The notes under the pieces were generated by a model that was not told where the DNA came from, ran no database searches, and saw only the letters and a program-made list of their open reading frames with translations. Position numbers and translations under genes: made by a program. This document shows positions 19,344 through 23,741 of a stretch of 26,719 nt of DNA, piece by piece (the stretch's first letter is position 1; each line of letters opens with the position of its first letter). The DNA comes from a virus (taxonomy: Duplodnaviria > Caudoviricetes), in the IMG/VR virus record IMGVR_UViG_3300006641_000147, positions 1 to 26,719 of that record, one strand, 5' to 3'.

Positions 19344-20285
19344 TCAGCGTGCTTTCAGCGCCGCGACCTCTGTTTCCAGCGCCTCAATTCGCGTGATGGC
19401 TTCCTGCAGCGCCTTCACCGCCTTCATGTAGAGCACGCTGTACTTGACAACCTTTGTGCTGGTGCCGAGTGGATTGCGCTGGCGCTCCATCACCGGATTG
19501 CCGTCAGCATCGACCACGGCATTGCCATCGGCATCCACCGACTGAACTTCGACTTCCTCGTAGTCGGGATGCTCTTCGATCAGGCCAGGCGATACGGTCT
19601 GAGCTTCTTGCGCAATCAAGCCGATCTGCAGCGGGCCAGTCGGGTCGGCCTTGTAGTGGAACTTGCGAACGCGCAGACCTTTGATGTCGTCCCACTGAGA
19701 TCCGGCATCAACGATGTCCTGCTTCAGCTTCTCATCCGAGACGGCGCCGTAGGAGTTGTTGGTGTTGGTGACGTTGCCGGAGTCTGCTACACGGAACCTA
19801 AATTCATTAGCAGGCTGGTTATAGTAACTAAGCGCATAAAATGAGCTATTAGTAGTGTTTCTATAAGCCCAAATACCTAACGCAGTATTTGTATAACTTG
19901 CGTTTGTCGCCTGTAATATTAGACATTCTAAATCGGCTGTTTGTCGAAGCTCATGGTATGCACCAGAAGCTCCTAAATAAGCCCCAGTATCACTCGCCTT
20001 AAAGTACCCACCACTGGTGGTGCGATTTCTTTCGGTGCCACCAGTCGAGATTGCCACCGTGTCGGCCGCAGGAAAGTAGATGCCTGTGTTCTGATCGCCT
20101 TGTGCGGCGATCGCTGGAGCAGATGCGGTTCCAGCAGGAACGCTGTCGAACAGTTCCTGAATGGTGATCTTCTTGCTGCGATCAGCCGCTGCGGCTTCGC
20201 TGATGTCAACGATGTAGAGCAGGTCGCCGGTCGCGGTGTTGGCACCCGTCAGTGACGTGAGTGCGGATACGGCTTTGTCAGTCAT
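19344..20285 (-). CDS. Fibre/spike protein with C-terminal intramolecular chaperone (peptidase S74) domain
   Basis: N-terminal 'MTDKAVSALTSLT...DLLYIVD...SKKIT', shaft 'APAIAAQGDQNTGIYFPAADT', S74 cleavage motif 'SDEKLKQDI', 'IGLIAQEAQ' and a C-terminal coiled coil. Confidence 0.85.
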   Translation of the reverse strand: MTDKAVSALTSLTGANTATGDLLYIVDISEAAAADRSKKITIQELFDSVPAGTASAPAIAAQGDQNTGIYFPAADTVAISTGGTERNRTTSGGYFKASDTGAYLGASGAYHELRQTADLECLILQATNASYTNTALGIWAYRNTTNSSFYALSYYNQPANEFRFRVADSGNVTNTNNSYGAVSDEKLKQDIVDAGSQWDDIKGLRVRKFHYKADPTGPLQIGLIAQEAQTVSPGLIEEHPDYEEVEVQSVDADGNAVVDADGNPVMERQRNPLGTSTKVVKYSVLYMKAVKALQEAITRIEALETEVAALKAR

Positions 20286-22723: not shown

Positions 22724-22752
22724 GCAGACCATTCTATTGGATGTTGGACAGG

Positions 22753-23310
22753 TCAGGAAGAGGGTGATACCGGCGCGGTATTGATGGATCGCCAGTCCGT
22801 TCTGTCCCAGTTCCCCTTGCCGTGGTTGCAGGGGTGGCAGAGGATCTGCAGGTTGTCTATGTCCAGGGCGAGGTGAGGGTAGTGCTTTCGGGGTTTTATA
22901 TGGTCGACGTTGATGGTGATACCGTCGGCCGGCGTCGCGCCGCAGCACATACACCTGGCACCGTACTTCTTGATGGCCAGCATTCGCAACTGCCGCCACT
23001 CGAAGGTCTCGAGGAAAGCGTCGGTCTTCGGGTCGACCTTGCTCTGAGGTTTGGTCGTGACGCTGCGCACCCACTCGTCGGAGCGATCGCGCAAGATCCT
23101 GGCGTGGATGGCATGCACAACATGCAGGTTGCGAATTACCCAGCCTCGACAGGACGCACCAGGCGGCCTCGGGAATCCATCCTTCGCCAGAGCTCTACAG
23201 GTCAGTTCATAGATGCTGGCGTGCCGCTCGGATGAATGTCCGAGCCTGCTCTTGGTGTAAGCGTGCAGCTTGCTCTTCTTGATGGGCACCTTGTAGCGCA
23301 CCTGGGGCAT
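22753..23310 (-). CDS. HNH endonuclease with ~95-aa basic N-terminal extension
   Basis: Likely start ATG 23310 (MPQVRY) with AAGGAG SD. 'EWRQLR...CMCCG...VDHIKP...NLQILCHPCNHGKG' is a Zn-binding HNH domain. Confidence 0.9.
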   Translation of the reverse strand: MPQVRYKVPIKKSKLHAYTKSRLGHSSERHASIYELTCRALAKDGFPRPPGASCRGWVIRNLHVVHAIHARILRDRSDEWVRSVTTKPQSKVDPKTDAFLETFEWRQLRMLAIKKYGARCMCCGATPADGITINVDHIKPRKHYPHLALDIDNLQILCHPCNHGKGNWDRTDWRSINTAPVSPSS

Positions 23311-23554
23311 AGTGAGGACTCCTTGAGGAGGTTCCAGGCAAAGGCCCCCTACCCCACGGACGTGAAGTAAGAGGCAGGCTCCAGGGCCCCGTAGGGCATC
23401 CACATGCCAGCTTTCGCTGCACCCTCGACTTGTGGATTCGGCCAGTCGCACGGACTATTCGGGAACTGCCCCCTAGCCTTTCGGCATACCGTGTACCCTT
23501 TTCTTCCGCGCAGCCGGGTTGGGCTCTTGCTCCGTGCGGAGTACGGGTTACGGC
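23311..23554 (-). ncRNA. Candidate large structured RNA upstream of the HNH gene (no named family recognised)
   Basis: Multiple stems with GNRA/UNCG tetraloops (GCC-GAAA-GGC, CAGC-GAAA-GCTG, GCCC-TACG-GGGC), long-range pairings, and a 14-bp stem with 4 G-U pairs at 23344-23375. Confidence 0.55.
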
Positions 23555-23706
23555 AAAACAAAAACCCTCATGGGGAAAGGCTTTAGGCTTGGTTTGCCGC
23601 TACTTGGTTGGTCACGCCACCTTCCAAGTGCTTTGACGAAGCCCGCCCCCATGAGGGTTCGGATAATCGCAGGCGTGTGCTGTATCGGTTTACCAGGCCG
23701 ACACAG
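23555..23706 (-). ncRNA. c4-like antisense RNA with upstream a1/b1-like target hairpin
   Basis: 13-bp perfect outer stem AACCCTCATGGGG/CCCCATGAGGGTT followed by a U-tract. Internal unpaired segments GGCGTG and ACCAAGCC complement upstream CACGCC and GGCCTGGT. Confidence 0.6.
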
Positions 23707-23711
23707 TTCGT

Positions 23712-23741
23712 ACACTAGCCAAACGCTCCGCAGGCTGTCAA
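23712..23741 (-). promoter_or_regulatory. Putative sigma70 promoter driving the RNA-HNH cassette
   Basis: Consensus TTGACA (23741-23736, overlapping the terL stop codon), 18-nt spacer, TAGTGT (23717-23712). The first hairpin starts about 6 nt downstream. Confidence 0.65.

Follow-up and report, generated by a model that had tools for sequence, protein, structure and literature searches.

The DNA analysed here, hereafter the window, is a 26.7-kb piece of the genome of a podovirus with a T7-like capsid, as indicated by domain matches for portal, scaffold and capsid proteins. Complete sister phages measure 32-36 kb; no polymerase, primase or helicase was recognised in their ORF lists, and a Rep-like gene was confirmed in one of them (G001). 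On the minus strand of the window, ~430 nt without coding capacity extend from the stop codon of terL (23738) to the start of a gene for an HNH endonuclease (23310), as a preliminary description of this DNA had reported, and the two RNA modules and the TTGACA-18-TAGTGT promoter (23741-23712) that it placed in this gap are present, the latter being unlisted by a consensus scanner (Table 1). Elsewhere in the window, an ORF with a Peptidase_S74 chaperone domain (19344-20285) lies between the portal gene and small upstream genes, and is not found at the corresponding place in the sisters G001 and G002.

Searched against Rfam at the gathering score, as had been proposed for the RNA modules, the window and 20 HNH loci returned no match to a known family except one tRNA, and relaxed E-values added rows at chance level or below threshold only. 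By BLAST, neither plasmids nor GenBank phages gave a real match to the leader of the window or to one of its homologues, except for one 53-nt piece, and a literature search, light on subscription journals, found no paper describing the system. Sequencing runs yielded small shares and contigs only, among them a single 252-nt contig of an RNA run at depth 2, which is no evidence of transcription.

Table 1. Features of the cassette and its downstream junction in the window.
Feature	Position	Strand	Basis or remark
Putative sigma70-like promoter	23712..23741	-	-35 overlaps terL stop codon; sequence and positional homologues with better consensus
Switch 5' hairpin, loop X (23699-23692) complementary to X'	23682..23704	-	Covariation, fold
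Switch address Y (CACGCC), complementary to loop Y' (23618-23613)	23672..23677	-	Covariation
Long stem enclosing Y' and X' (23593-23586), then U-tract; terminator-like	23555..23659	-	Fold, alignment
Leader pseudoknot of 3' RNA	23495..23540	-	Helices 1-3; common to several core families
Core P1 (23493-89/23453-49), enclosing GNRA hairpin and T-loop-like hairpin	23398..23493	-	Helices 4-9
Core H-type pseudoknot	23448-44/23430-26 crossing 23437-31/23404-398	-	Helices 4-9
Direct repeat copy 1 (CCTGGAGCC)	23377..23385	-	Repeat analysis of 91 cores
Wobble-rich hairpin with conserved G-rich 3' arm	23345..23374	-	Predicted start of RNA-DNA hybrid
Direct repeat copy 2 (CCTGGAACC)	23330..23338	-	Repeat analysis
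HNH endonuclease, 185 aa, optional	22753..23310	-	Two CxxC motifs; ribosome-binding site predicted in small hairpin
Ancestral promoter-like element before cupin gene	22731..22759	-	Overlapped by last HNH codons

Among 80 TerL relatives, 76 of which extend at least 400 nt past the stop codon, a structured core lies behind terL in 11, and most other junctions consist of a ~60-nt spacer with a promoter-like element, so that the cassette-free junction sought in related phages is indeed present in sisters. These empty sister junctions, with the enrichment of this HNH family behind such RNAs (45 of 64 proteins), bear out the reading of the locus as an inserted, self-promoted and mobile-looking cassette with an undescribed structured RNA. 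The promoter-like element before the cupin gene (..CCAATAGAAT), common to the window and the empty junctions, marks the downstream edge of the putative insertion. Within the last HNH codons of the window, a palindromic GATACC..GGTATC (22760-22780) matches operator-like inverted repeats located upstream of the promoter in empty junctions. All six loci with a TerL identity of at least 97.6% carry a cassette, with three unrelated core families and different switch addresses, and cores swap rapidly among sisters that are 98-99% identical. Behind terL in L223, L224 and L229, an unrelated HNH gene with an AP2-like tail occupies this junction and is followed by a core, either whole or truncated.

The 5' module was compared through a pattern scan that returned 113 loci, including 106 true homologues, of which 45 diverse ones were aligned. 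All share one arrangement, in which the promoter is followed by the hairpin that bears loop X, by the short segment Y and by a long stem with a U-tract, within which Y' and X' are enclosed. At the promoter position, the sense-strand score reaches at least 9/12 in 30 of 44 switch homologues, and antisense scores stay at or below 8/12 across the 44, as given by a consensus scan only. X and X' pair as TGGT/ACCA in 37 of the 45 aligned homologues and as TGGC/GCCA in 7, with one mismatch. Furthermore, Y and Y' form at least five Watson-Crick pairs in 44/45 homologues, through 41 different sequences, compared to a mean of 7/45 and a maximum of 14 with shuffled partners; such a hypervariable address fits incompatibility-type selection. 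The module folds with a z of -5.2 and is likely a same-strand switch, whose terminator-like end would yield a short RNA. Neither these address pairings nor the direct repeat presented below featured in the preliminary description.

The 3' module is a core RNA of ~220 nt with two pseudoknots, and its last element is a G-rich hairpin flanked by direct repeats that covary. A pattern scan recovered it at 119 viral and two bacterial loci (a Variovorax contig and a Burkholderiales MAG), and its covariance model, R1, matches the window at 23329-23549. Covariation among homologues, which had been proposed as a check, is present: in 37 aligned cores, 39 pairs distributed over nine helices are 96.7% paired, and 22 of them display two-sided, compensatory changes. 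None of 500 shuffles reached the observed pairing and slid controls were 34-44% paired, both controls leaning in favour of the structure since it was drawn from the tested sequences. This alignment identifies the crossing of CGACT/AGTCG and ATCCACA/TGTGGAT, previously described as a pseudoknot or alternative folds, as a true covarying pseudoknot, and upholds the TCCGC/GCGGA helix. For the supposedly perfect 8-bp pair CGCACGGA/TCCGTGCG, none of 37 sequences shows a compensatory change, and pairing of the 5' ACCC/GGGT stem reaches just 55%; alternative partners are CACGG (23493-23489) for CCGTG and the loop ACCC (23519-23516) for GGGT. Support for the module lies in covariation, its stability being on a par with that of shuffled sequences (z -0.08).

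Indels that shift the frame, together with compensatory pairing, speak against a protein-coding 3' module, and HDV-like and group I-like ribozyme topologies were dropped for want of a P3/L3 and given the high variability of the would-be P7. The leader pseudoknot also precedes other core families, and the second hairpin enclosed by P1 is T-loop-like. At many loci, including L110, L114, L130, L150 and L154, an insert of 110-140 nt with long terminal stems, often tRNA-like, takes the place of the core GNRA hairpin. The bacterial locus L427 (3540-4165) carries a switch-like element and a core among accessory genes of a contig from a cultured Variovorax rhizosphaerae strain, with no same-strand gene close behind the core. 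In addition, a covarying hairpin element of ~85 nt, not in the window, was found at L491, L442, L489 and others. Of its 19 distinct copies, 17 lie on the strand of a core and 9-280 nt downstream of it, and a 9-nt word of the element also occurs in ColE1 near position 1355, which we take to be the primosome assembly site.

Flanking the last G-rich hairpin, a direct repeat of 6-9 nt was found in 90 of 91 cores. Its two copies covary across 15 word types, with a match of 6.9 nt to their own partner against 4.4 nt when shuffled (0/2000), and the complement of the repeat occurs inside the RNA in just 3/90 cores. A repeat without partner in the RNA implies a partner outside it, most simply the template strand.

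Some of the genes that follow cassettes encode no more than the C-terminal part of a phage replication initiator, matching residues 176-274 of 288 in phrog_9474 or 218-291 of 346 in phrog_678, the latter followed by a P-like loader, and longer initiator relatives carry DUF1376 or HTH_36 N-termini. The first of these short Reps has fewer than 60 open codons upstream in all 80 loci, and the examples displayed share one layout, with a cro-like gene followed by promoter, switch, core and Rep. A core lies within 1400 nt upstream of the short Rep in 67/68 and 69/70 loci (two overlapping sets with at least 900 nt of flank). In an independent metagenome scan that kept loci with at least 500 nt upstream, leaving out 20 of 80, a core precedes 49/50 short Reps versus 0/10 full-length ones (~7 distinct), several of the latter having a switch-like element alone before the gene; full-length Reps were taken from metagenomes because the viral scan with a full-length Rep returned short forms only. 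A second short Rep, O-like and unrelated to the first, is accompanied by a P-like loader in 24 of 26 loci and has a core in 21/24 by BLAST and in 23/24 on inspection.

Three unrelated cores exchange 37 times on the Rep tree, six identical Rep domains are associated with different cores, and 5 of 115 short-Rep entries have no core; the other two exchanging families also covary (23/33 and 9/43 pairs). The exclusion counts are not independent, as all full-length Reps fall on one side of the tree and genomes with a terL cassette in a single clade, which inflates Fisher values; about three evolutionary cases are represented. At another locus (L019), a switch leads directly into a Rep N-terminus of the DUF1376-like kind, in which iteron-like repeats stand in tandem, and then into an HNH gene, an arrangement that reads as a protein-origin version of the same slot. 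Most genes directly after cores are not replication genes. On these comparisons, RNA cores stand where the protein-bound initiator origin is missing, with the exception of G035.

Within the clade of the window, 15 near-complete genomes were scanned whole. Clusters of iteron-like 9-mers in the Rep linker count 4-6 copies in 9/9 genomes without cassette versus 2-3 in 6/6 with cassette; 0/6 cassette genomes reach at least four clustered copies, with one exception on inspection, and one N-terminal control region also reached four. DnaA-box-like 9-mers, defined by consensus, occur in rep in 14/21 genomes with an empty junction versus 0/8 with a terL cassette. The cassette of G013 is cut by a contig end. 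The window's sisters still encode a full-length Rep; as the window stops short of its rep gene, the test here rests on G001 and G008. In G035, whose cassette lies away from terL, two exact 14-mers persist together with a DnaA-box-like site, and degenerate repeat copies remain in G002. The cassette does not stand out clearly in the cumulative GC skew.

A knotted RNA standing, across many freshwater phages, where the protein-bound origin is missing suggests that the RNA itself likely starts DNA copying. An origin role, whether as a primer or not, is what we consider the likely explanation of the cassette, and we lean, with somewhat less assurance, towards an RNA-primed, ColE1-like origin under P4-CI-like control, associated with a homing-type HNH. 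Sequence comparison shows how both RNAs fold, the pairing code of the address, the direct repeat, that the HNH gene is optional and that cassettes and protein-bound origins exclude each other; from this we infer the following course, from transcription to homing. Host RNA polymerase would start near 23705 and mostly stop at the U-tract, releasing a switch RNA of ~150 nt that could pair with X and Y in any nascent transcript sharing its address, likely setting copy control or immunity. Read-through RNA would fold into the knotted core, where copy 1 of the repeat would pair with the template at copy 2, the G-rich arm helping to capture the template into an R-loop, which RNase H and Pol I may turn into a primer for DNA synthesis. 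The helicase would be loaded by the C-terminal initiator domain, in other phages, or by host PriA, and the optional HNH would likely spread the cassette by homing.

In ColE1, the upstream G-tract of RNA II pairs with the template at a downstream G-tract, and the ColE1 record has two G6 tracts (928 and 1175). There, the RNA II pre-primer forms the primer and RNA I controls it (PMC5043065). Similarly, the cassette encodes a folded non-coding RNA with its own putative promoter in place of an initiator protein, with likely control of the 5' end by a small RNA and two G-tracts near the 3' part. By contrast, it is shorter (~390 nt versus 550), has no evident counter-transcript promoter, as reflected in the antisense scores above, nor an Rfam match to RNA I, and resides in phages, often with a remnant C-terminal initiator. 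Homology to RNA II, suggested by look-alike words, was not found: when 187 leader regions were searched with RNA II by nhmmer, nothing matched on the sense strand, and R1 does not match ColE1; without such homology, the cassette would work like a ColE1 origin and not be a member of that family.

The proposed control resembles that of the C4 RNA of P1/P7 (RF01695), and that of the CI RNA of P4 and of IsrK of Gifsy-1, through a same-strand RNA complementary to upstream sites in its own transcript (X/X' and Y/Y' covary); as for CI, it heads a replication region and ends in a terminator-like stem. P4 CI pairs with seqA and seqC, stopping expression of replication genes (PMC4825925); c4-a1b1 is listed in a table of PMC2864571. 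Unlike these, the switch matches neither the Rfam C4 nor the c4-2 model, and would control an RNA rather than a kil/icd peptide. When a second downstream target of the seqC/a2b2 type was sought in the window, Y recurred in the HNH gene only (23223 and 23106), where chance is possible for a 6-mer, and X nowhere. Finally, the plasmid motifs ARRPOF, PAGEV and GEBRO are structured RNAs of 220-350 nt also linked to replication, and the ARRPOF region supports replication without rep (PMC5737381); the cassette differs from these plasmid-borne motifs by its lack of an Rfam match, although the supplement of that paper may list motifs outside Rfam.

Several observations count against a primer origin: the absence of ColE1 homology and of a real plasmid match, the repeats kept in G035 and G002, the control region at four copies, the full-length Rep of the sisters, the mostly non-replication genes behind cores and the flat GC skew. 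The foremost alternative, to which we give a low probability, keeps the origin without the primer: the nascent RNA would act as a scaffold, to which the C-terminal initiator domain and the helicase are tethered or which keeps the duplex open, with the primers made by primase. Identical exclusion data apply to it, a C-terminal Rep domain and P-like loader are kept beside the RNA, and a mere primer would not require folds this ornate. However, one Rep domain accepts three unrelated folds, which is hard to reconcile with direct recognition, some cores have no Rep of this kind in their vicinity, and pairing with the template is what the direct repeat and the G-tract suggest.

It is rather less probable that the RNA is a cis-acting transcription element, such as a put/EAR-like antiterminator or a stabilising leader for the downstream operon. 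Such a role would agree with the position of the core, always between promoter-switch and, usually, an operon, and in the window ahead of structural genes. Yet the ancestral promoter-like element is kept downstream, L427 has no same-strand gene close behind its core, and the loss of the initiator N-terminus or iterons would be left unexplained.

The HNH protein itself agrees with the preliminary description in its nuclease core and N-terminal extension, a PF01844 domain standing behind a helical extension, for which a fold search with the whole-protein model gave no clear match. D136, H137, N153 and N162 are invariant in 34 HNH sequences, and the catalytic motif is thus intact. Its best matches in sequence (E 2e-9) and in fold (Z 8.8, rmsd 3.8, 78 aligned) are free-standing phage HNH endonucleases (GVE2 HNH, PDB 5h0m/5h0o; phrog_144), with GVE2 HNH as the closest structure, and it differs from them by its variable helical N-terminal domain and strong enrichment behind RNA cores. 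As with HEARO/omega RNA and IscB, a pseudoknotted RNA lies directly upstream of an HNH-containing gene. The protein was nevertheless rightly said not to be IscB: its 185 aa leave no room for RuvC, HNH families alone were matched, the model comprises one HNH domain and a helical N-terminus, and the locus has no Rfam match, PLMP or split RuvC, guide segment or obligate HNH.

The preliminary description had proposed a dedicated mobile unit with an RNA-bound or RNA-guided HNH, a reading that we now regard as improbable. Some association is clear: a core lies upstream of 45 of 64 distinct HNH-family proteins with some clustering on a poorly resolved tree (27 changes versus 42 shuffled), the family is the largest next-gene cluster after cores (26/177 loci), and its HNH core is strongly conserved. 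At least 16 of 93 distinct switch-pattern loci are followed by HNH, a lower bound because 33/113 loci had short flanks. In G035 (C1, ~29900-30750), a separate and possibly recently acquired cassette carries a 115-aa HNH of the same family, 54% identical. However, HNH follows just 2/65 distinct window-type cores with enough flank, one of them the window, so that homologous RNAs do sit upstream of unrelated genes, an outcome that the preliminary description had named as refuting its proposal; it is present in 1/11 sister terL cassettes, and L083 and L101 have a near-identical core at the same terL junction without it. The family is found behind 11 unrelated folds, no core was detected for 19/64 of its proteins, and an unrelated HNH gene also adjoins a core (L229). 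No free guide-like segment was seen either, the variable 6-mer having a partner in cis.

The commonest gene directly after window-type cores is a ~207-aa 2OG-Fe(II) oxygenase (18 loci in all sets, among them L357, L309 and L311). Minimal cassettes with a switch and a short region keeping the G-tract hairpin only precede HNH at L036, L060 and L045. A role as terminase cofactor was also considered for the HNH, and rejected as it is absent from 79/80 terL loci. With an intact catalytic motif and an optional presence at an orthologous site, as in homing HNH endonucleases, the protein is likely a homing-type passenger at a conserved, valuable site, which fits better than a guide-nuclease pair. An equally improbable reading, a trans-acting decoy or anti-defence RNA (tRNA or antitoxin mimic) diversified by host conflict, would suit the T-loop-like hairpin, the tRNA-like inserts of some cores and the rapid core swapping among sisters, but a decoy needs neither near-universality in short-Rep phages nor absence from full-length-Rep loci, and the core lies behind a terminator-like switch.

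To our knowledge, most large ornate phage RNAs have no assigned function, and the tracking of RNA by initiator truncation and iteron loss is a natural genetic experiment that gives uncatalogued RNA families a testable role. At about even odds in our judgement, temperate freshwater phages would have repeatedly replaced the DNA-binding half of their initiator and its iterons with an RNA origin, drawing on at least a dozen unrelated folds for one slot, with the 6-nt address defining incompatibility or immunity groups and a specialised HNH family moving the origins, possibly via the R-loop. If the RNA-primed origin is true, ColE1-style RNA priming would reach replication modules of lambdoid type and of podoviruses, Burkholderiales would be supplied with numerous small replicons and pairs of RNA addresses orthogonal to one another, and the clustering of nuclease genes beside such RNAs would be explained without these nucleases being RNA-guided.
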